IMG/VR virus record: IMGVR_UViG_3300037245_001320
Span: 32,001-96,000 of that record
From: a virus
Strand: one strand, 5' to 3'
DNA length: 64,000 bases
The notes below the pieces were generated by a model. That model was not told where the DNA came from. It saw nothing but the letters and a program-made list of their open reading frames with translations, and did not search any database. Numbering within the stretch: the first letter of the stretch is position 1; each line of letters begins with the position of its first letter. Positions 18,753 to 51,400 of the stretch are shown piece after piece. The translations under genes were made by a program, and so were the position numbers.

Positions 18753-21488
18753 AAGAAAGAAACGAGATAAAGCAACTAATACAAAACTTGACTTTAATCT
18801 ATATCCAAAACAGAAGTTGGCTATGGATGGCGGGGCCAACGAGATATTATACGGAGGAGCAGCAGGGGGTAAATAATACTGCTCCCTTTAAATCTCTCTT
18901 TAACGGGGAAACTCTTAACAGGTAAAGCTGAAGACAATCCCGTGGGAAGACACTTGAATGAGTGTAACCTGTAACGACTAGAGCATTGTGCTCGTACATC
19001 ACAAGCGATTGGTGATGGAAATGGGAGACAGAGTAAAATCTGAAGAGATAGTCTGATCTCATAGGAAACTATGAGCAGTTCATTTGAGAACGTGATCAAG
19101 GGTAGCGACTTGGTTAGAACATTATTGGGTAAATCACATTTATTGAGAATATCAGCTATAACATATTGTTTATCTTCCCCAGGTGTCCAAGTATATCTAT
19201 TTAGAAAGCAATTGACAGATTTGATTAAAGGTCATTTAAGTTCTGAGTCAGGGTTTCCTAGTTTATTATCTGGACTAGTAGATGCTAAATTATGTAAGAT
19301 AGATATGTCGAGATACAAAATAACCTTTAAAAATGGTTCAGGGGGGAATAGCTGGGCGGGTGGCTCAACTATCCACCTCAGTCACCTTTCTAAAGGAAAA
19401 AATTCATTAAATAATTATCAAGGTGCGGAGATACATGTGCTAATGTTAGATGAGGCAACTCACTTTTTAGCATCTAGTTACAAGTATTTAAGAACAAGGG
19501 TAAGGCTTGGTGGATGGAATCCTCCAGCAGAAGGTCCTTATAGTGGGGACTACTACCCCCGAATTTTAGCTTGCTCGAATCCTGGCGGCTTAAGTCATTC
19601 ATTTTGGAAGAACGAATTTGTGGATAGATTGGAAGATTATGTACCAGAGTTAATGCCTCCTGAACAAGGTGGTATGAGACGAATGTATATTTCTGCGAAA
19701 ATAACGGATAATGCTATCCTCATGAAAAACGATCCTACATATGTCTCAAGACTACTAGCCAGTGGAGAGAAATCTTATGTGGAAGCTTTATTACATGGTA
19801 AATTATTGCCCTTTATAATAGTGATATTATAATTAGCACAACTTTAATTGCTGGAAACTCTTGTTAGGTTTCAGGTACAAAGAGAAACAAATGTTTCTCT
19901 CGTGACAATCCTGAAAATAAAGACAATCAGCAGCGAAGACAGAAGGGAACTTCTGTAACGTTCATCGACTATCCCGTGAGGGAGTAGAGAGGTAGTCCTC
20001 TCGAAACAGGTTGCAACTCAAAAGAGTTGAAGATATAGTCAATTCTTGCAGGAGACTGTAAGCAGTTCATAAGAGAACGTAATTAGATTAACGATCTGGT
20101 TAGAATATAAAAGAATTGGAATATTTCCATGGGAGGAATCCTACAAGATGACTTCTCCTTTGATATACACATTTTGGATGATTTTGAAATACCAAAGAAT
20201 TGGGATGTGTACAGATGTTTTGACTGGGGTAAAAACTTGCTCCCCTTGACAGTAATGTTAAGTGTAAAACAACTTTAATTGCTGGAAACTCTCGCTAGGT
20301 TTCAGGTACTCACAGAACTTTGTTCTGAAGTAAAAATCCTGAAAATAGAGACAATCAGCAGCCAAGACAAGCATAAGCTTGTAAGGTTCAACGACTAGAG
20401 CATAAGCTCGTAGGGAGGTAGTCCTTCCGAAACAGGTTGCCCACAGAAATGTGGTGAAGATATAGTCTATTCTATATGGAGACATATAGCAGTTCAGTAA
20501 TGAGAACGTATTCAGATTAACGCCCTGAGTAGAATATGCAAGGCAGCAAAACCCTTCGGTTGTATTTGGTTTGCAGAATCAAACGGAGAAGCAGTAGAAT
20601 TAGCAGACAAATCAGTAGTTACTTTTCCTGTAGGAACAGCTATAGCAATGAGAGAATTGTATGGTTGTAAAGAAGGGGAGTATGATGTCGGAGTTAATAT
20701 CACAGATAAGCAAATAGGAGAAAGAATTAAAGAAACAGAAGAGGTTTTCTTAAAAGGTTATAATATTAAAGCCGGTCCTGGGGACGGTAGTTGCTGGGGA
20801 AAAGCGAACAAAGAATTTTCAATTATTGATGATATTAACCATGGTTATTATGGAAGAAGAATATCAGATAATGAAAGACTATTCAAAAGGTTTCTAAAAC
20901 CCAAACATTCAAGAGTCGAGGGGTTTAGTTTAATTAGAACTAGATTAAGAAACTCATTACCATTTGCAGAAGGAAAGATGGAAGAGCAAGGATTATTCTT
21001 TTTAAGGGGATGTAAACATATGATAAGGACAATTCCTACACTTCCTCGAAGCGACTCGAATCCCGACGATTCTTCCCCTCATGCAGAAGACCATTTAGCA
21101 GATAAACAACTATTGTCTGCCTAGCCTGTGAAGGTTAGTAAACAACTTTGTTAATTGCTGGAAACTCTTGTTAAGTTATAGGTACTCGTTAATTCAGTAA
21201 AAATCCTATAAATAGAGACAATCAGCAGCCAAGCCTGAAAAGGAAAGGTTCAACGATCATCGAAAGGGACAAAATAACTTGTCACTGAGTAGAGTACATC
21301 CAAGTGGATGGAAACGCAAAGCTCTCAGAAATGAGATGAAGATATGATCTAGCCTATATTGAGAAATATAGAAGTTCCTACGAGAACTGCAATAAAAGTA
21401 ACGAATTATTGTGAATACAGCGGTGTTAAGATATTACCTACTAAAGAAAGTTTCTAAAGTGGGTCAAGCTAGGGTGACATTATTTTGA
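18745..21488 (+). CDS. terL: Terminase large subunit in 5 exons: 18745-18870, 19128-19799, 20114-20230, 20543-21103, 21423-21488 (513 aa)
   Basis: Joining the exons restores Walker A YGGAAGG|GKS, Walker B MLDEATH, SNPGG, LLHG|NWN, FDWG|AAKPF and EDHLAD|VLRY; all exon lengths are multiples of 3. Confidence 0.92.
18871..19127 (+). ncRNA. Group I intron 1 in terL (257 nt, ORF-less)
   Basis: 5' exon ends in U, intron ends in G; IGS GCUCCCU pairs with exon AGGGGGU (U.G at splice site); P7 GACUA/UAGUC. Confidence 0.9.
19800..20113 (+). ncRNA. Group I intron 2 in terL (314 nt, ORF-less)
   Basis: U|...G| boundaries; AAUUGCUGGAAA, AAUCAGCAG, CGACUA and GAAGAUAUAGUC core elements. Confidence 0.9.
20231..20542 (+). 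ncRNA. Group I intron 3 in terL (312 nt, ORF-less)
   Basis: IGS GCUCC pairs with GGGGU; same P/Q/R/S elements; close in sequence to intron 2. Confidence 0.9.
21104..21422 (+). ncRNA. Group I intron 4 in terL (319 nt, ORF-less)
   Basis: IGS GUCUGC pairs with exon GCAGAU; P7 variant GAUCA/UGAUC is a compensatory change. Confidence 0.9.
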
Positions 21489-21519: not shown

Positions 21520-21543
21520 AAAAAATTCCCACTATGGTATAAT
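21520..21543 (+). promoter_or_regulatory. Conserved 24-bp phage promoter, copy 3
   Basis: AAAAAATTCCCACTATGGTATAAT. Confidence 0.85.
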
Positions 21544-21549
21544 GTATAT

Positions 21550-21726
21550 ATAGGAAGGTTCGCATCTTCCTTAAGGTACAGTAAAATAGAGTCTCAAAGA
21601 ATCAATAAGAAAAACATATAAAAACCTCTTATTAGATCAGAAGTTAGGAAGAACTTTAAAGGATTTACTCTATTACCTTTGAAGTTCTATGCGAAACCTA
21701 ATGGAAGATCTAATAAGAGGTTTTTC
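21550..21726 (+). ncRNA. Structured leader RNA A (hairpin, long stem, two pseudoknots) upstream of HNH gene 1
   Basis: 19-bp perfect stem 21620-21638/21707-21725; two loop-loop complementarities; same fold as 33608-33780. Confidence 0.75.
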
Positions 21727-21748: not shown

Positions 21749-22762
21749 ATGAAACCAAGAGAAGTATCGCACAGATACAACAAAGCAAATGTTATGGTAA
21801 ACAAAGAACAGAAAGAGAAGATGTGTTCTGTTTGTAACAAAGTGAAAAGCCATAAGGAGTTCAATAAATCTTCTTCAAACAAAACAGATAGGTTAGCTGG
21901 AAGATGTAGAAAATGTGAACTTTCTCTACGGTATATAGTAAAAGACACACCTACTACAAAAGCAAAGAAATATAATAAAGACCACCAAGAAGAAAACTTA
22001 AAAAATAAGGAAAAGATGTGTGTATCATGTAATATAGTAAAGCCCTTAGAAGAGTATAATAAAGATAAAGCACGAAAAGATGGTAAGCAATCAGTGTGTA
22101 GACCCTGTAGGCAAGCATTTTACACTACTAATGACCAAAAGAAAAAAGCGAGGATGTATGATGATACCCCTGAGAGAAAAGCATACGAAAAGGAGCGAGC
22201 ACAGAGACCTGAGAGAAAAGCTTATTGTAAGGCACTCAGTAGCACACCTAGAGCAAGAAAACAACAAAAAGAGCATAGAAGTAGACCAGAAGTAAAAGAA
22301 AGACAAAGAGAGTTAAGTAAAATGCCTCATAGAAGAGCAACCACCAATGCATACAGGCAAAGTATAAGAGACAGACCAGAAGTTAGAGCTATGAATGCTA
22401 TGAGGGGAATTATACATAACACAGTAGCTAAGTTTGGAACTAAGAAAGAAAATAAAACTGTAGAAATAACAGGATACTCAGCTAAAGAGCTTATATCACA
22501 TTTAAACAAAGGGAAATACAAATGGAAAGACTATATGAAAAACACACATAAAAATATACTCTTCCACATCGACCACATCATACCCATATCCTATTTTGTA
22601 AAGAAAGGAAGAGAGTATTCAAAAGAAGAGCTAAATAAACTTATTTCTCGTGTCAATGATTTAAGAAATCTTAGAATATGGCCAGGAAGATTAAATGAAT
22701 CTAAGCATGATAAAATAGACAGGGATTTAATCAGAGAACATGGAATAGAGGATCTTCTTTAA
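21749..22762 (+). CDS. HNH endonuclease with N-terminal zinc-finger repeats (paralog 1)
   Basis: Two K.C..C...K...F/Y......C..C units, basic RPE repeats, HIDHIIP...NLR....N.SK; ATG 21749 has the RBS. Confidence 0.8.
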   Translation: MKPREVSHRYNKANVMVNKEQKEKMCSVCNKVKSHKEFNKSSSNKTDRLAGRCRKCELSLRYIVKDTPTTKAKKYNKDHQEENLKNKEKMCVSCNIVKPLEEYNKDKARKDGKQSVCRPCRQAFYTTNDQKKKARMYDDTPERKAYEKERAQRPERKAYCKALSSTPRARKQQKEHRSRPEVKERQRELSKMPHRRATTNAYRQSIRDRPEVRAMNAMRGIIHNTVAKFGTKKENKTVEITGYSAKELISHLNKGKYKWKDYMKNTHKNILFHIDHIIPISYFVKKGREYSKEELNKLISRVNDLRNLRIWPGRLNESKHDKIDRDLIREHGIEDLL

Positions 22763-29868: not shown

Positions 29869-30508
29869 AGGAGAAAAAATGAAAACACTTACAGGAAAGA
29901 TAGAATACATAGGAAATTCAATAATAGTTCACTGCTACTTTACAGCAGGGTACATAATTAACCCAGAGTATGCTAATAGTAAAGAAGAAGCTAATAGTAT
30001 TTTAAAAGAGGAATTAACAGAGTTAGTAGACGAGCTAAGAACAGATCTAATTCATTATGAATACAATATTAAGTTCTCAGAGAGTCCCATAGTTCCCTTT
30101 CGAGTATCCCATCCTAATGAAGACAACAAGATGCCTATAAACACCTACATGGACGATGATGGGTTAGTTGGACAATTGTTATTTGGGAATAGTTTATTTA
30201 TAGAATCAGGAGATGTATCTGAAGGTAAAGAGAAATTGTTATTAGATATTAAAGAACATGTTAAAGAGGTTTATGCTTATTTAATAGATGATGCTTATGT
30301 TATGATAGAAGAAGAGTGCATAGATGAATAGATACATATTCATAAAAACTGTAGAGCCTCTATGTGAGAAATGTTGTTTTGTAGAGGATTCTGTAGCTAA
30401 ATGTAATGAGAATATATTAAAAGCTATAAAAGATTGTGGAGTTAATTGTTTGAAGATCCACGGGTATTACTCTGTGGTTGATGATAGTTGTTTGAAGAAG
30501 GGGAATGC

Positions 30509-31186
30509 ATGAATTATAGTTGGAGATTTAACAAAGAAGTTGTAGGGGAATTCGATGAACATGTAAGACAATCCGTTCCATTATATGAGGTATTTCATGC
30601 CTCAATTTTGGATCTAGCCAAATATTACATAACCCCCAATTCTGATATTATCGATGTAGGCACATCCACAGGACATTTTATAAATTCCATATATGAAGAT
30701 AAGTTAGATAGAAATAATAAGTATGTAGGAGTAGACATAGAACCTGATATGATTACAGAGTGTAGAGAGAGGTATAAGGATAAAGATATCTCATTTATAC
30801 TATCAGATGCTATTGAAGTGGACTACAAGAATGCAAGTGTGATAACTTTAATATTACTTCTACAGTTTATGAAGAAGCCAGAGAGAATAAAGTTGTTACA
30901 ACATATACACGACTCAGTTAAGATAGGCACAGCTCTGTTTATAGTGGAGAAAATAAAAACACCTAACTTAGATATACATGATATGTATGTGGATGTTTAT
31001 TATGACTTCAAAAGATCACAAGGGTTATCTGATACAGAAATACTAGATAAGAATACCTCATTAAGAGGTGTGATGTTTCCCGAGACTCTACCTGAGATCT
31101 TACGTATTCTAGACTTCATTGGGTTTGACACAGAGGTTAATGTTAAGTATAACAACTTTGCCAGTATAATAGCGGTAAAGAGATAA
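30509..31186 (+). CDS. cmoA: CmoA-like (carboxy-SAM synthase family) SAM-dependent protein
   Basis: W.F...V...FDEHVRQSVPLY, DVGTSTG, LQF, VEK, DFKR.QG.S..EI..K..SL.GVM follow the CmoA pattern. Confidence 0.75.
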   Translation: MNYSWRFNKEVVGEFDEHVRQSVPLYEVFHASILDLAKYYITPNSDIIDVGTSTGHFINSIYEDKLDRNNKYVGVDIEPDMITECRERYKDKDISFILSDAIEVDYKNASVITLILLLQFMKKPERIKLLQHIHDSVKIGTALFIVEKIKTPNLDIHDMYVDVYYDFKRSQGLSDTEILDKNTSLRGVMFPETLPEILRILDFIGFDTEVNVKYNNFASIIAVKR

Positions 31187-31195
31187 AGGAGAAAT

Positions 31196-32032
31196 ATGAT
31201 AAGACAAATATTAAAAAACACCATAAAGGCACAATTAGAAATAGATTCTAATCCAGCTCTGTTACTTAGTGGAGGATTAGATAGCCTTTCTATATTATTG
31301 GCCTGCTTAGACATAGGATTTAAACCCCATTGCTATACATTCTATTTAGATAATTATATTTCAGAAGATCTACTTTCGTGTAGAAAACTGAGAGATATTT
31401 ATGGATTTAAGTTAACAGAAGTAGTTATAAATACAAGTGAAGTAGATGTGTACAGGGATTGTATAGATATATTAAGAGAACATGCTCATTTGGAACACAC
31501 GACTAAGCACACAAAAACTTTTGTTCAATGTTACCAGCCCATGTTGTATTTGCTTCCATATATAACAGAGACAACTGTTTTATCGGGTATATTTGGGGAC
31601 ACTCTTCAGTTTAACTCAAGAAAATTTGCTGTAGCAAGCAAGAACATGCCCTACACAGAACTAAATGACATAAGAATAAATAAATTAAAGAATCCCTACT
31701 CCAATAGCTACAAACCTGTTTATGACTTGTTTGCTAGAGAGTATAAAATTTTTAAAGCTGTCTATTTAGAAAAAAATGTACAGGATTACTTTTTAGAAAA
31801 AAATTACCTAGCTTGTATGAAACCTAAGAGGAAGAACTTAGTATATGAATCTTTTAAAGATGAAATAGATAAGTATAAACTATATCGAACACCTTCAGGA
31901 TATCAGGTAAATAGTCATATTAGAGAATGGCATGATGATGCTTTATTAAATAATACAGAAATTAATATAAATAATAACAAAGCTGTAATAGGAATATACA
32001 ATAGAATACTAAGAGAGATAAAGGAGAAATAA
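31196..32032 (+). CDS. Asparagine-synthetase-like ATP-dependent amide ligase (synthetase domain only)
   Basis: PP-loop LLSGGLDS and VLSG..GD; no N-terminal glutaminase domain. Confidence 0.7.
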   Translation: MIRQILKNTIKAQLEIDSNPALLLSGGLDSLSILLACLDIGFKPHCYTFYLDNYISEDLLSCRKLRDIYGFKLTEVVINTSEVDVYRDCIDILREHAHLEHTTKHTKTFVQCYQPMLYLLPYITETTVLSGIFGDTLQFNSRKFAVASKNMPYTELNDIRINKLKNPYSNSYKPVYDLFAREYKIFKAVYLEKNVQDYFLEKNYLACMKPKRKNLVYESFKDEIDKYKLYRTPSGYQVNSHIREWHDDALLNNTEININNNKAVIGIYNRILREIKEK

Positions 32033-32036
32033 GAAT

Positions 32037-33518
32037 TTGCAAAAAGAAAAAATTAAATTATTCAGTACCTTCACAGGAATAGGTAGCCCAGAGATGGCTA
32101 TGAGAAACATAGGATTGGATTTTGAGGTCGTAGGTATATCAGAAGTAGATAAGTGGGCTTTACAAGCTTACGACGCTATCCATTGTGAGAATGAACCAGA
32201 ACCAGAATACCCAACAAAAGAAGAAATGAAAGAATACTTCCTAGAAAAGAATATAGCTTACAACTTCTCCACAGGTAAATCAGAGATGCCTAGAAATGAA
32301 AGAGATCTACAGAGATTATATAAAGCACATAAGAGAAGTCGAAATTTTGGGGATATCAGATTGATAGATGAACACAATCTACCTGAGTTTAACTTCTTCA
32401 CATATAGCTTTCCATGCAAAAATATATCAGTTGCAGGTACACAATCAGGTTTAGATGAAGGATCAGAGACCCAATCATCCTTACTATGGGAGTGTAAAAG
32501 ACTAATAGAAGTAAACAAACCTAAATACCTCTTAATGGAGAATGTTAAGAATCTTGTAGGTAAGAAGTTCAAACCACTATTAGAGTTATGGATAGAGACT
32601 TTAGATGAACTAGGATATAAATCATCTTATAAAGTATTGAATGGTAAAGATTTTGGAGTACCTCAGAATAGAGAAAGAGTTATGATGATTTCTATTTTAG
32701 ATGATGGAGAAGAAGATTATATTTTTCCAGAAGGACAACCACTAGATATATGTCTACATGATGTGTTAGAGCCTAAAGTAGATGAAAAGTACTATATCAA
32801 CCCTGAGAAGTACAAGCATATAACAGCACCTTTACCCTCACAAGAAATAAGCTATTGTATTGATGCTAATTATCATAAAGGTATTTCTGTAGATCAATAT
32901 ATCTTGAAGAGAAGAAGACAATTAGTTCAGGTAGGTAATCTAGAGAATAAGATTCATTCTAATACCAGAGTTTATGCTGAGGAGGGATTAAGTCCAACTT
33001 TAAATAGTATGAATGGAGGCAACAGACAACCTAAGATCCTAGTAGACGGATGTGCTATAAGAGGTAGGACTCCTAAGGGAGAAGGCAAGGATACCCCTGT
33101 AGAGCAGAGATTAGAGATAAACAAACATGAGGGTGTTTCTAACAGTATAACCACTGTAGGGAAGGATAGTCTTGTTTGTGAGACATCTTATGGGGGAAGA
33201 ATCGTAGGTAGAAATCCAGATAATCCCAAAAGCAGAGTAAAAGGACTACCTACTGTACAGATGTTAGAGTTGAATAAAAACCCTGATATCTCTAATACTC
33301 TGTCTACCGTTCAAAAAGATTCTGTGGTAATGAATACTCATAGGAGAGTTAGAAAATTAACACCTCTAGAATGTTGGAGACTAATGGGCTACACAGATGA
33401 AGATTTTGAGAAGAGCAGGGACAAGGGGTTTTTAGCAAACACAAAGTTATACGAGAGAGCAGGAAGAGGAATTGTAGTTCCTATGCTTGAAGCATTACTT
33501 ACAAATCTATTTTATTAA
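32037..33518 (+). CDS. C5-cytosine DNA methyltransferase family protein (probable carboxymethyltransferase, multi-TRD)
   Basis: FTGIG, GDI, YSFPC, MENVKNL, PQNRER, RKLTPLECWRLMG; motif X reads AGRG instead of AGN(S/A). Confidence 0.9.
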   Translation: MQKEKIKLFSTFTGIGSPEMAMRNIGLDFEVVGISEVDKWALQAYDAIHCENEPEPEYPTKEEMKEYFLEKNIAYNFSTGKSEMPRNERDLQRLYKAHKRSRNFGDIRLIDEHNLPEFNFFTYSFPCKNISVAGTQSGLDEGSETQSSLLWECKRLIEVNKPKYLLMENVKNLVGKKFKPLLELWIETLDELGYKSSYKVLNGKDFGVPQNRERVMMISILDDGEEDYIFPEGQPLDICLHDVLEPKVDEKYYINPEKYKHITAPLPSQEISYCIDANYHKGISVDQYILKRRRQLVQVGNLENKIHSNTRVYAEEGLSPTLNSMNGGNRQPKILVDGCAIRGRTPKGEGKDTPVEQRLEINKHEGVSNSITTVGKDSLVCETSYGGRIVGRNPDNPKSRVKGLPTVQMLELNKNPDISNTLSTVQKDSVVMNTHRRVRKLTPLECWRLMGYTDEDFEKSRDKGFLANTKLYERAGRGIVVPMLEALLTNLFY

Positions 33519-33577: not shown

Positions 33578-33601
33578 AAAAAATTCCCACTATGCTATAA
33601 T
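33578..33601 (+). promoter_or_regulatory. Conserved 24-bp phage promoter, copy 4
   Basis: AAAAAATTCCCACTATGCTATAAT. Confidence 0.85.
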
Positions 33602-33607
33602 AGAGTT

Positions 33608-33780
33608 AAGAGGAAACTGAACCATCCTCAAAAACTACTTGACATTCTGATAAAAGTAAATTAAAATTGGAGAATATATAAGAACTCCATTTAAATGAAA
33701 ACAGGAGAATAATAAAGATTTCAGAATGGTCTTTAAAATATTCGGTTCAGACCTGTGGAAACTTAGATGGAGTTCTTTTT
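33608..33780 (+). ncRNA. Structured leader RNA B upstream of HNH gene 2
   Basis: 15-bp stem 33680-33694/33763-33777; CUGAACC/GGUUCAG and CAUUCUGA/UCAGAAUG pairings; same fold as RNA A. Confidence 0.75.
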
Positions 33781-33793
33781 ATATAATAGGTAA

Positions 33794-34855
33794 ATGAGTA
33801 AAGAAAAAGAGAAAGATGTTGTTAGTGTTGGGATGAAGAAGTGTAGAACTTGTGGGAAAGAGAAGGAATCTACTTTAGAGAACTTTCACGCAGGAAGAGG
33901 AAGCAAAGGAGGATTTCTACTTGATTGTAAAGAATGCAAGCGAGCCAAGGAAAGAGGAGACAAATATTATTTAGAACACTTTGAAAGAGAGGAAGACACT
34001 ACTCCAGCAGGATATAAGAAATGTAGTGATTGTGGGAAAAATAAAGAACAAACTGCTGAGTTTTTCCACAGAGACAAAGGATTTAAATCAGGCTTTAAGG
34101 CAAGATGTAAAGATTGTGAAAATATTATTAGAAACAAGCCAAAAAGAAAAGCCAACGATAAAAAACAAGCACAGAACCGCAACGCTAGACCAGAAGTAAG
34201 AATTCAGAGAAAGGAACAGAGAAAGGAATATAAAGCTAGACCAGAAGTTACGAAACACACTAAAGAGTATAATAAAGAATATTTATCTAGACCAGAAGTT
34301 AAGAAACATACTAAAGAGTATCATAAAGAATGGTATAAAAAACCAGAAAATAAAGAACGTAAAAAACAACAAGATAGGATAAATTCCCAAAAGCCTGAAA
34401 ATAAAGCTAAAAGAGCTGAAAGACGCAGAGAAAGATACAAAAATGAACCCTTATTTAGAATAAGGGTTAATCTTAGCAGAAATTTTTCCAGTCAGCTAAA
34501 AACACTTGGAACAAAAAAGCCCTCTGGAACTATGACTTATACAGGATGTACAAATGAAGAACTCTTAAAACATTTAAACACAGGCGAGTACACAATGAAG
34601 GACTACATGACAAACACCCCTTTGGAGACCTTCTTCGATTTTGATCACATAATACCTTCTCAGTATTTCTTAGATAGAATTAAAACAGATGAAAACGATA
34701 AAATAACAAAAGAGACACTTCCTTGGTTGCATAATTGGTGGAGCTACAGAAACATGAGGATTTGGCCTCATATACCCAATATTATTAAAGGAAAGAATAT
34801 AGATCAGGAGCTAATAGCTAAACATGGTATAGAAGATCTGTTAACTATAGATTAA
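33794..34855 (+). CDS. HNH endonuclease with N-terminal zinc-finger repeats (paralog 2)
   Basis: Two KKC..CGK.KE...F......CK.C units, RPEV repeats, DFDHIIP...NMRIWP...N..K, C-terminal LI..HGIEDLL shared with paralog 1. Confidence 0.8.
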   Translation: MSKEKEKDVVSVGMKKCRTCGKEKESTLENFHAGRGSKGGFLLDCKECKRAKERGDKYYLEHFEREEDTTPAGYKKCSDCGKNKEQTAEFFHRDKGFKSGFKARCKDCENIIRNKPKRKANDKKQAQNRNARPEVRIQRKEQRKEYKARPEVTKHTKEYNKEYLSRPEVKKHTKEYHKEWYKKPENKERKKQQDRINSQKPENKAKRAERRRERYKNEPLFRIRVNLSRNFSSQLKTLGTKKPSGTMTYTGCTNEELLKHLNTGEYTMKDYMTNTPLETFFDFDHIIPSQYFLDRIKTDENDKITKETLPWLHNWWSYRNMRIWPHIPNIIKGKNIDQELIAKHGIEDLLTID

Positions 34856-48012: not shown

Positions 48013-48431
48013 AGTGGTATAGTAAATATGTGGGAGTACCTTTTAGATCTTTAGGAAGGACAATGCAAGGGTGTGATTGTTATGGTTTAGTTCAACTTGT
48101 TTTAAAAGAGCATTATGATATAGTACTACCAGATGTAGGGGGATATGTTAATGCACTTGACACAGGACAGACTTCCAGTGTAATAGATGTAAACACCCCT
48201 TTATTATCAGGTGAAAAACAAACAGAACCCTCAGAGGGATTGGTAGTTGTATTATCCTCCTTAGAAGGGCTATCATCACACGTAGGACTGCTCGTAACAG
48301 ATAAGTTGATGTTACACACAACTAAGCAGTTTGGGACGATTATAGAGCCTATAACAAGAAATAAAATAAAAAATAGAATAAAAGGATTATACAATGTCAA
48401 TAAGAGTTATAACACAAACAAATCCATTTAG
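48009..48431 (+). CDS. NlpC/P60 tail tip assembly protein (gpK-like)
   Basis: YVG.PF...GR...G.DCYGLV...HVG......MLH. Confidence 0.85.
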   Translation: MKWYSKYVGVPFRSLGRTMQGCDCYGLVQLVLKEHYDIVLPDVGGYVNALDTGQTSSVIDVNTPLLSGEKQTEPSEGLVVVLSSLEGLSSHVGLLVTDKLMLHTTKQFGTIIEPITRNKIKNRIKGLYNVNKSYNTNKSI

Positions 48432-51400
48432 TACAGAAAGAAAGATAAACGAATTAGATGATGTAAAAACAGTTAACGGTATTCTAAGAAAACTTAAAAT
48501 AAATAAAAAGGACATTCCTCTTGCCATATCAGTTAACGGTGTCGTTACAGAAGATTTTTCCTTGAAAGTAAAAGAGAATGATTTGGTATTAGTAAAAATC
48601 ATTCCTTCTGGGGACAGAGGTACAGCTATCTCAAGGGTTTTAGGAGGCTTACAGGTTGTAGCAGGTATAATACTTATTGCTACAGGATTAGGAGCAGGAG
48701 GAGGGGTAGCCTTAATAATTTCAGGAACAACTACATTCTTTGGTCCTGAAATAGCCTCATGGGCTGAGAACGCAACAGACAAAGACAATAAGGTAAAGTT
48801 AACAGGACCATCCACTTCCGATGTAAGCTACCTAAAAGGAGGAAAAAATGCTTATGGTCAGAATCAACCTGTCCCTGTAATATTAGGAAAACACCGATAT
48901 TATCCATACCAAATAGCTTATCAATATACCAATTTAGAACTAGATGCTAAAGTAACTCCTGTAGTATCCAATCCAGAAGTAGTTGAGGACACTTTAAGAA
49001 AAGCAAATGGACAGTTAAATCAACTAAGGAATAGACATGACGATTATGAAACAATGATATCTGATGTAAGAACAAAAATAGCAGACCTATACAGTCCAGG
49101 AGGAACAACATGGGTAGCTATTTTAGATACTCGAACGGACTTGTATGCTTTAAAGAGTATTCCTGAATTAAATAGGGATAGTCATTTGTCAACAGCAATA
49201 GGATTCTTTACAACTGGTGCACCAGTTTCTGAGGCATATGGCTCAACATTTGTTTCTTCAGCATATAATCAAAAACTACACCAAGTACTTTTGTGGGGAC
49301 ATAAAGACATAGAAATATTACCTAATACGCTAAAAAGAGCAGAAACACTTGTGACTAATACAGCCTTAACAGACACATCAGTAGTACATAATAGTTTAAG
49401 TAATTATGGGGAAAAAGCTCAAAAGCATGTTGCAATCTATAAAGTGTTAAAAAAGTTTAGTACAACTACAGGAGCAACCCCTTACAGCATCCTTTTGCCA
49501 GGAAAGATTAAAGATGCAACAATGGTATTTATTTTTGGTTTGTTTTTTGCAAAAAACAAAGACGATGAGTATTTAACTCCTAAAATTAAAGTATCATGGG
49601 CATTATATGAAGTACCCGACTCAGGTCCAGATGTGCTTGTAACAACAAAAACGGAAACATTCTCAGGGGGAGATGTACATAAAGCAGAACAACAGGAACC
49701 TTCGGGAATAAATTTAACTATACCCGTTACATTAACTACGACTAAGCAATACAAAATAACTATACAACGAGAGTTTGATGATATGCAGGATGAGGACAGT
49801 ACGGTGTACAATCCTCATGTGTCTGCATTTGAATCGGTAGTAGCCTTATCACATATACTATGTACATCTGATCTAGATGTTATGACTCCCTATGCAAAGA
49901 CTACTTATAATTACTCATCAGTAGTTACACAAGATGATACAATAGATGGGGATATAGATAGTTTTAATGCTATTGTACAAACTAACGTACCTAACTATAA
50001 TGGTGTAGGAACAGGAAGTTCTGCATGGAACACATTAGAACTTACAAGTAATCCAGCTTCAATGTATTTATATATACTACAAGGTGCACCAAATAAACGC
50101 CAAGTAGATGATAGTGAAATAGATTGGGCAGCTTTAGAAGACTGGTGGCAATTTTGCGAAGATAATAATTTTGAGTGTAATATAGTTTTAATAAACCCTG
50201 GAAGTATAAGTAATATATTAAAAACAATATGTATAACAGGAAGAGCAACATTAAATACTACTAACAACTATTCTGTTTTGGTAGATAAAGAACGTGATTT
50301 TCCAACACAACTAATTACAAATTTAAATGCCTTTAACATGTCATTAAATAGGAGTTTCAATGAACCTGTACATGGGATATACTTTTCCTTTATAGATGCA
50401 GGAGAAGAGTCAGACTACCAAGCAGTAGAAAGAGCTGTTTATCTAGATGGGTATAATGAAAATGGGACAGACGGAAAAATTAAAGCCACTAAACTATTAT
50501 CTCAACAATTACTAGGTGTAACAAGTGCAACTCAAGTAGGGCAACTAGGTAAGTTTATGATTAATGCCTATAATAGACGTGTAGAAACAGTCTCAGTTTC
50601 AATGGATATAGAATATTTATTAGCGTTACCAGGAGATCTAGTTAAATTCTCCTACGATCAATTACTAACAAGTACTGCTAGAGGTAGAATAACAGAGATA
50701 ATAAACAATGGCTCAGGAGAAACTGAAACCATATTATTAGATACCGATGTAACTATGGAAGCAGGTAAATCATATGCAGTTGTTATTAGATTAGCTAATG
50801 GAGATTTTGTAGAAGAAGGTGCAACACAGAGCATACCTGTAAATACAATTGTTGGTACCTTTGACTATGTAATTCTGTCTAGCCCACAGGTAACATCTGT
50901 AGCTGTTGGAGACTTGGTGGCTTTTGGAGAAGCTGCAACAGTAACTGGGGATTATTTAGTACAATCTATCACTCCCTCAGATAATCTATCAGCTACGTTA
51001 CGATTAGTTAATTATGCAGAAGAAATATACTCTCCTGATCCACTAGGACCATGGGAATCTCCTTATGGGAAACAGAGTGACTTTGGAGCCTCTCCTATTT
51101 TAGAGAGTACCTACACATTGGATGCAATAGGTAATTTAACAGATGCTAATGCAAAAAGATTAGACACATTAGCATCTCCTTCAATAAAAAGAGCTATACG
51201 TACCCAAACACCTTCAGCAACATACGTTCGAGAAGATGTGCTTGAAATGGCCTTATCTAATAATTATTTATACTTTATAGATAAAGAGGATCTATCTATA
51301 AAGAGAACAACCATATTACCCAATGCAGCGACAGAAACAATAGTAACAACCCCTTGTAAGGAATTAGCTGTTACGGCTGATGATAGGTTTCTGCTTTACA

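Follow-up and report, generated by a model that had tools for sequence, protein, structure and literature searches.

Introduction

The closest known system to the RNA leaders described here is formed by the C4 RNA of phages P1 and P7 (Rfam RF01695) and the c4-a1b1 element (RF03163), which share clan CL00128. The P1/P7 C4 antisense RNA goes back to Citron & Schuster 1990, as cited in PMC8198154, and c4-a1b1 is a separate Rfam family (Weinberg et al. 2010, PMC2864571). In the P1 immI region, which we fetched and ran against Rfam, the C4 model scores 68.8 bits; the -10 element of P1c4 (48218-48223) is followed by the boxes a1 (48255-48261, 7 nt) and b1 (48269-48276, 8 nt), then by the C4 RNA (48343-48419, 77 nt) and by a2/b2 at the icd ribosome site (48423-48459). 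In the Rfam consensus as it falls on P1, a closing stem surrounds two hairpins, the second of which presents b' in its loop; behind it, 7 unpaired nucleotides, a', run directly up to the 3' strand of the closing stem. Between the C4 RNAs of P1 and P7 the box letters differ, and their partners change along with them.

Two further systems bear on the locus through their biology. In P4, the CI RNA pairs with seqA and seqC and causes premature termination (PMC4825925). In T-even phages, the expression of homing endonuclease genes (I-TevI/II/III, segB, mobE, segF and seg43(25)) is damped in several layers, by late promoters, terminators and hairpins (PMC2988022).

Here, we analyse a 64,000-nt stretch of DNA, which we call the window and to which positions refer unless stated otherwise, corresponding to bases 32001-96000 of a 154,018-bp virus record in IMG/VR; a single sequencing run containing the stretch was found, a DNA metagenome of marine sediment that is probably the source sample. 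A preliminary description of this DNA, made from the sequence alone, had pointed to a structured RNA upstream of an HNH nuclease gene, without mention of the C4 and a1/b1 system of P1 and P7. The leaders that we describe form an uncatalogued RNA family, which varies the C4/a1b1 design and occurs in a setting new to it.

Results

Architecture of the leader upstream of nuclease gene B

The leader termed copy B lies on the forward strand, downstream of the promoter AAAAAATTCCCACTATGCTATAAT (33578-33601), which has an extended -10 element with TATAAT at 33596-33601 and a core identical in 12 genome copies. Downstream of it, on the same strand, is a free-standing nuclease gene of 353 amino acids (33794-34855, start codon at 33794). 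The 5' part of the leader begins with the hairpin P1 (33610-33629), in which GAGGA (33610-33614) pairs with TCCTC (33625-33629) around a 10-nt loop; this loop holds box a (CTGAACC, 33617-33623), which starts with a YUNR motif (CUGA). Box b (CATTCTGA, 33643-33650) occupies the loop of a second hairpin, TACTT/AAGTA (33636-33640 / 33654-33658).

The 3' domain is a long terminator hairpin (33680-33777) that appears in both minimum-free-energy (MFE) and constrained folds and is matched by a model built on copy A. Its basal stem (33680-33694 / 33763-33777) has 15 bp including one G·U pair, and is followed by an inner stem of 5 bp (33701-33705 / 33752-33756) and an apical stem (33707-33719 / 33729-33743), each of the latter two found in MFE and constrained folds. 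The apical loop holds box b' (TCAGAATG, 33721-33728), a perfect 8-bp complement of box b, while an 8-nt bulge on the 3' side, directly against the 3' strand of the inner stem, holds box a' (GGTTCAG, 33744-33750), a perfect 7-bp complement of box a. The foot of the basal stem passes into the T-run TTTTTAT (33776-33782), which forms a tail like that of an intrinsic terminator, and this terminator-like end lies 16 nt upstream of the nuclease start codon. All of the pairings proposed for copy B in the preliminary description were found in place.

Two features near or within the leader were also observed. A near-consensus sigma-70 pair (33639-33667; TTGACA, 17-nt spacer, TAAAAT; 11/12 matches) overlaps box b; since copy A carries no equivalent at the matching structural place, this pair is probably a chance occurrence in AT-rich sequence. 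Directly 5' of the cassette (30488-33518) are genes for a SAM-methyltransferase-like protein, an asparagine-synthase-like protein and a C5-cytosine methylase (Pfam PF00733, PF00145).

The pairings exceed chance and belong to a sense-strand RNA

Copy B folds at -40.8 kcal/mol (z -3.05), with none of 200 shuffles as good, and the copy A fold (21544-21726) has a z of -6.24. The preliminary description had raised the concern that shuffled AT-rich sequence might often give equivalent double complementarities. A loose shuffle test that accepts any nested duplex pair anywhere gave p≈0.013 for copy B alone; such a test discriminates weakly in AT-rich sequence and was replaced by a position-specific one, in which random loops of matching composition were compared at the P1 loop and 3' bulge, and at the linker and apical loop. 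With this loop-specific test, the probabilities for copy B fell to p≈2.4e-4 for the 7 bp of a:a' and p≈2.8e-3 for the 8 bp of b:b', which settled that concern in favour of the pairings. For copy A the corresponding values were p≈1.2e-4 and p≈5e-3, and at the same structural positions a:a' gave p of 3.5e-5, 6.8e-4 and 1e-4 in three further copies (D, E and F, respectively; see below). Across four copies b:b' ranged from p 3e-3 to 4e-2, and in F it consists of 7 bp with one G·U. As the looser value is moderate, the weight rests on the recurrence of the pairings at fixed positions.

G·U pairs account for 22/232 nested pairs over the five copies, and in 5/5 copies the fold of the sense strand is more stable than that of the antisense strand by 5-12 kcal/mol; taken together, these observations indicate that the functional molecule is RNA of the sense strand. 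They also argue against a DNA cruciform, one of several alternatives (processing of the nuclease mRNA by a self-cleaving or capping ribozyme, a structure at the DNA level, or a chance fold) that we consider very improbable as a group. Lariat-capping ribozymes do precede homing-endonuclease ORFs in some eukaryotic twin-ribozyme introns, and the window holds four group I introns; yet outside the helices almost no nucleotides are conserved among the five copies, which leaves no candidate catalytic core, no ribozyme in Rfam matches the leaders, and chance is excluded by the loop-specific test. The group I introns themselves (18795-21371; Rfam RF00028, 53-87 bits) lie in a terminase-like gene 5' of cassette A, with no evident intron ORF.

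Five leaders share one fold with unrelated letters

The architecture was found in five copies: A and B in the window, D and E in the rest of the genome, and F on a related contig from another metagenome. The sample thus spans two phage lineages, with 4/5 copies from one genome, and D, E and F were found with the help of a promoter scan; the contig bearing F (L005) came from a protein look-up and was recognised when the loci were scanned for the promoter. Copy A (21520-21726, forward strand) precedes HNH paralogue A, whose ATG is at 21749, and consists of a promoter (21520-21543), P1 (21552-21557 / 21566-21571) and a basal stem (21620-21638 / 21707-21725), with boxes a/a' TTCGCAT (21559-21565) / ATGCGAA (21689-21695) and b/b' AATAGAGT (21585-21592) / ACTCTATT (21667-21674). 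On the minus strand of the genome, copy D runs from 116441 to 116266 (locus L103; a/a' TTGACCC / GGGTCAA, b/b' CCAGTG / CACTGG) and copy E from ~150360 to 150190 (locus L104; a/a' TAGTCC / GGACTA, b/b' AGCTAC / GTAGCT). Copy F (L005:1575-1735) has a/a' TTGAAGC / GCTTCAA and b/b' CAGCGTA / TATGCTG, the latter being the pair of 7 bp with one G·U.

In all five copies the elements follow the order a, b, b', a', and their letters are unrelated. Relative to the -10 hexamer, box a begins between +16 and +25, box b between +41 and +45, box b' between +104 and +124, and box a' between +123 and +146. Box a invariably sits in the loop of a hairpin of 4-6 bp, and every P1 loop contains a YUNR motif, with box a at its start or one base after. 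Basal stems of 15-25 bp are followed by T4-T6 in A, B, D and F and by a weaker T-run, TTTCTTAT, in E, so that a stable stem and U-tract of the kind expected of an intrinsic terminator or attenuator are predicted, from sequence and fold, between promoter and ORF. A and U predominate in these terminator stems, and a distance of 15-25 bp separates the box contacts from the U-tract. A simple terminator scanner misses the leader stems owing to its loop limit of 8 nt, and the promoter/terminator scanner was uninformative here. When RNA folds were computed for nascent transcripts cut before the basal 3' strand, a already paired with a' in B, D and E.

BLAST similarity among the copies is limited to the promoter, and MAFFT fails to align them structurally; we therefore used a single-sequence covariance model together with pair counts in Python. 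A covariance model of copy A alone found B as its best non-self forward match in the window (28.8 bits, E 5.7e-4), and scored 24.1 bits on E, 22.1 on D and 14.4 on F. A strict structural descriptor recovers B only, and a relaxed one recovers all five, the relaxed form giving many false positives in GC-rich control loci when used without the T-run rule. As proposed, B is thus another instance of a structured RNA in which all pairings have covaried, with the same fold in different letters: a real folded RNA of ~175 nt that is absent from the catalogues. The proposed orthogonality of A and B is likewise supported: their long-range pairings are wholly different, so that they should not cross-pair, and exact co-occurrence of a and b is confined to the own cassette for A, B, D and E.

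A possible further leader was seen at the edge of another contig (L004:1-41), which begins with AATTTTATTAAGCTTTTTTT directly 5' of an HNH gene of the B/F type, 41 nt preceding the gene. This segment resembles the 3' strand and T-run of the basal stem of leader D, and is probably a sixth leader cut by the contig end; judged by its sequence, the case hints that leaders and nuclease ORFs recombine independently.

A putative late-type promoter precedes leaders and morphogenesis genes

The promoter element, AAAAAATTCCCACTATGSTATAAT, spans ~25 nt and occurs with an identical core in 12 genome copies, at 1514, 17977, 21526, 33584, 34928, 37478, 54852 and 62980 in the window and at genome positions 98905, 116449, 132943 and 150368 on the minus strand. 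Its -10 is of the extended type, a -35 is lacking and a block further upstream is conserved, a layout reminiscent, by analogy, of activator-dependent late promoters. Since other copies stand 5' of portal, scaffold, terS-like and further morphogenesis genes, we treat the element as the late-type promoter of the phage. By inspection, no long stem with a T-run stands behind any of the seven promoter copies outside the five nuclease loci described below. In IMG/VR, the promoter pattern was found only in two short related contigs, neither of which carries a leader, and a metagenome scan with a 17-nt pattern returned 89 loci, nearly all by chance, with no new leader copies among them.

Leaders precede three types of nuclease

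Every leader copy (5/5) lies between the conserved promoter and a free-standing nuclease gene, in agreement with the placement of the RNA in the preliminary description. The assignment made there of the RNA to Zn-finger HNH proteins proved too narrow, since three types of nuclease stand behind the leaders, namely Zn-finger HNH, Rha+T5orf172 and HTH-HNH, and one relative of the first type has a plain hairpin in place of the fold. Nuclease B contains two CxxC...CxxC zinc ribbons, basic repeats of the RPEV type and a C-terminal domain of the HNH/EndoVII type (DHIIP...N...N); it matches the PHROG families endonuclease VII / HNH, and its distant homologues carry PF01844, PF14279 and PF12898. Nucleases A and B are paralogous Zn-ribbon + EndoVII/HNH proteins, 30% identical. 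The nuclease after leader D joins Rha-N to a T5orf172 (GIY-YIG-like) endonuclease, and the protein after leader E is of the HTH-HNH type. Behind leader F stands a gene with Tudor/SH3-like repeats, and then an HNH half, which matches the C-terminal half of nuclease B at 55% identity. The nuclease after leader F looks split (L005:1750-3574), comprising a 355-aa ORF of Tudor/SH3-like repeats, ~150 nt of repeat in another frame and a 201-aa HNH half (P0002), and may reflect a frameshift, a pseudogene or an assembly error.

Just outside the window, paralogue C (L105:432-1427, genome 97831-98826, minus strand; 331 aa, Zn-finger HNH) has the same promoter, and its leader is a plain terminator hairpin, GGCAGAGG...CTTCTGCC, followed by T5. 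From the sequence, all five nuclease genes under the promoter are therefore predicted to be gated by a promoter-proximal terminator-like hairpin, which is elaborate in 4/5.

These genes bear on a reading in which the RNA would be a passive structural leader or insulator, that is, a nuclease-resistant 5' fold that stabilises the mRNA, stops read-through from upstream, or both, with the contacts serving tertiary compaction. In keeping with such a role, the transcript is predicted to start almost directly at the P1 hairpin, and cassette A, which follows terL with no intervening terminator, could profit from an insulator; T-even endonuclease genes, too, have terminators, along with stable hairpins that leave the ribosome-binding site (RBS) free (PMC2988022). 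Nevertheless, four elaborate copies are kept under strong structural selection while paralogue C manages with a plain hairpin, and both kissing contacts are conserved in position, which makes a purely passive role quite unlikely in our estimation.

Promoter and RNA are separable from the nuclease

In a related phage, whose portal is 60% identical, an orthologous HNH gene (36% identical) occupies the same methylase–portal locus without promoter or leader. On another viral contig, a DNA methylase gene harbours a homologue of nuclease E (75% identical), which has an extended -10 of its own and no leader. As seen on that contig (L113:820-1010), it interrupts the methylase just past the DPPY motif and brings its own promoter, TGATATAAT; on its sequence, this insertion looks like a gene-splitting homing endonuclease, and its position inside the methylase gene supports the view that these are mobile nucleases of the homing type. 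No leader was found in the regions upstream of more distant HNH homologues (L110, L111, L112).

The HNH ortholog and the nuclease E homologue, both lacking a leader, show that promoter plus RNA on the one hand and the nuclease ORF on the other are separable modules. The earlier picture of promoter, RNA and nuclease as a self-contained mobile cassette is plausible at most. Among GenBank phages, no DNA match to cassettes A or B and no protein match to HNH-B was found; the portal is at most 33% identical to those of cultured phages, so that there is no cultured relative to scan, and no relatives of HNH-B or nuclease D were found in IMG/VR.

The variable loops are satisfied within their own leader

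The preliminary description had taken the variable loops to encode specificity for outside targets, and had proposed that loop and linker sequences be searched across the phage. We found that they pair with boxes of the same leader, and that no second exact a–b pair exists in the genome. In A, B, D and E, the 200 nt behind the leader hold no second set of a/b targets (up to one mismatch), and a one-mismatch search for trans targets gave chance-level matches only, among the matches listed. In copy F, the space between the Shine-Dalgarno sequence and the ATG of the nuclease-side gene (L005:1741-1750) contains CAGCATA, a perfect complement of b'; none of the other four copies has such an a2/b2-like arrangement, which chance could explain.

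The searches also bear on a guide or specificity RNA that would direct the adjacent nuclease, with the variable loops recognising DNA or RNA targets. Cassette-specific loops beside nuclease genes invite this comparison, and there is a superficial parallel to HEARO / IscB omega RNA, in which a structured RNA likewise stands immediately upstream of a gene for an HNH-containing nuclease. Yet the nucleases behind the leaders lack RuvC, match EndoVII/HNH, T5orf172 and HTH-HNH families only and belong to three unrelated architectures accompanied by one fold, the partners of the variable loops are boxes of their own RNA and not an outside target, other genome matches are absent, and close homologues of the nucleases occur without the RNA. 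Neither an Rfam match to HEARO nor an adjacent IscB-type protein with RuvC and HNH was found at the leaders. As the loops are satisfied internally, three nuclease types are involved and the nucleases occur elsewhere without the RNA, a guide role is hardly credible here.

At gathering thresholds, Rfam finds only the four group I introns in the whole window, and at E<=10 it finds nothing relevant in the five leaders. The C4 model RF01695 (gathering threshold 45 bits) has no match at E<=10 in the whole 154-kb genome or the five leaders, nor does the c4-a1b1 model RF03163 in the five leaders.

Comparison with known systems

Despite the silence of both Rfam models, the leaders share the layout of C4: a closing stem, an inner hairpin with the b' loop, and a 7-8 nt a' placed against the 3' strand of the closing stem. 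As in c4-a1b1, a box a (7 nt) and a box b (6-8 nt) lie between promoter and stem in 5/5 copies; as in P1, the regulator is co-transcribed with the gene behind it; and in leaders and C4 alike the box letters covary with their partners between related elements. The differences are equally definite. P1 has a2/b2 at the downstream RBS, whereas leaders A, B, D and E do not; by sequence, the leaders end in a U-tract terminator and C4 in a CCA-like end of the RNase P type; a hairpin loop presents box a in the leaders, but the P1 fold leaves a1 unpaired; C4 has an additional UUCG hairpin with no counterpart in the leaders, while A and B carry an extra inner stem. Furthermore, the downstream gene is a homing-endonuclease-like nuclease rather than icd/ant, and a single lytic-looking phage holds four mutually orthogonal leaders. 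With a likeness of layout and not of model score, shared ancestry with C4 is a conjecture.

Among known systems read out by termination, P4 CI comes closest in mechanism, by analogy, in that a leader-derived RNA would pair with boxes on the same transcription unit. It differs from the leaders in having target boxes on either side of the RNA, in the processing of CI and in serving replication genes in lysogeny, and no likeness to P4 CI by sequence or through Rfam (isrK) was found in the leaders. With the T-even genes the leaders share free-standing or intron nuclease genes, late promoters, terminators and very stable leader hairpins. The T-even elements are, however, simple hairpins and terminators, most of which sequester the RBS, while one stable hairpin lies just upstream of the RBS and leaves it unsequestered; they have neither two covarying long-range loop contacts nor a C4-like layout.

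The likeness to C4 and CI raises the prospect of a trans-acting antisense RNA, in which a terminated or processed 3' domain would accumulate and its a' and b' would pair with nascent transcripts of the same cassette, giving negative feedback; we assign this a modest chance. The layout of C4 with a1/b1 is that of the leaders, the boxes are orthogonal between cassettes, and each of the five loops has YUNR where box a begins, a motif reportedly shown by Franch et al. in 1999 to mark fast bimolecular antisense recognition. Countertranscript-driven attenuation in plasmids offers a parallel for feedback in trans. P4 CI, too, terminates through complementary sequences up- and downstream of itself (PMC4825925). 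On the other hand, the full leader satisfies its loops in cis, so that a role in trans needs the 5' part to be removed; no processing signal was seen, the 3' end being a U-tract with no CCA-like end; and an exact search found no second target set anywhere in the genome.

Discussion

On balance, we lean slightly towards the reading, drawn by analogy, in which each cassette has a leader of its own that restricts how much transcription from the late promoter reaches the nuclease gene, the box contacts tuning the gate. What leads us there is the order and spacing of the boxes, their pairings, the link to nuclease genes, the C4 layout, the damping of nuclease genes in T-even phages and the folds of nascent RNA. 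A cis leader of ~175 nt would be transcribed from the late-type promoter up to the predicted terminator 16 nt before the nuclease start; most transcripts would stop at the leader, and read-through alone would yield nuclease mRNA, keeping a potentially harmful enzyme scarce. The a:a' and b:b' contacts would add a self-recognising layer to this gate, whose direction of action is a guess. Because the plain hairpin of paralogue C would attenuate without boxes, the contacts must add something.

In the kinetic form of this gate, a:a' would pair first, before the 3' strand emerges, hindering closure of the long stem and favouring read-through. Box a' abuts the 3' strand of the stem, so that a' would emerge just before the terminator can close. 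With the 3' end held by the polymerase, the basal helix of 15-25 bp would have to wind as a pseudoknot, and its closure would be slowed. Whatever occupies boxes a and b, for example a leader of the same cassette in trans, would then restore termination. Such a kinetic role is suggested by the position of a', by the a:a' pairing in nascent folds and by the YUNR start, a U-turn signature of loops that recognise other RNA quickly. The opposite action is possible, with the contacts locking the terminator fold, or merely compacting or stabilising the RNA, and they may have no effect on the terminator at all. For the nuclease itself the leader is dispensable, as relatives carry the nuclease without it.

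A more far-reaching proposal, to which we give little credence at present, is that the leaders form a new class of self-recognising switches for selfish nucleases, in which rapid kissing in cis would put a topological block on closure of the terminator and accumulated leader of the same cassette alone would compete in trans and restore termination, each being an orthogonal dose-limiter. If true, this would provide a function for the unexplained a1/b1 boxes of P1 C4.

Homing endonucleases need to be expressed, but in small amounts and at the right time, and T-even phages achieve this with simple hairpins, terminators and late promoters; the uncultured marine-sediment phage described here has a far more elaborate RNA, which pairs with itself. 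The leaders carry the C4/a1b1 design beyond the control of lysogeny in proteobacterial phages, to what may be the gating of nucleases in a distant, lytic-looking lineage, and they indicate that upstream boxes of the a1/b1 type alone can be under strong selection. With orthogonal copies before three types of nuclease, they also constitute a natural, compact set of orthogonal RNA–RNA recognition modules.
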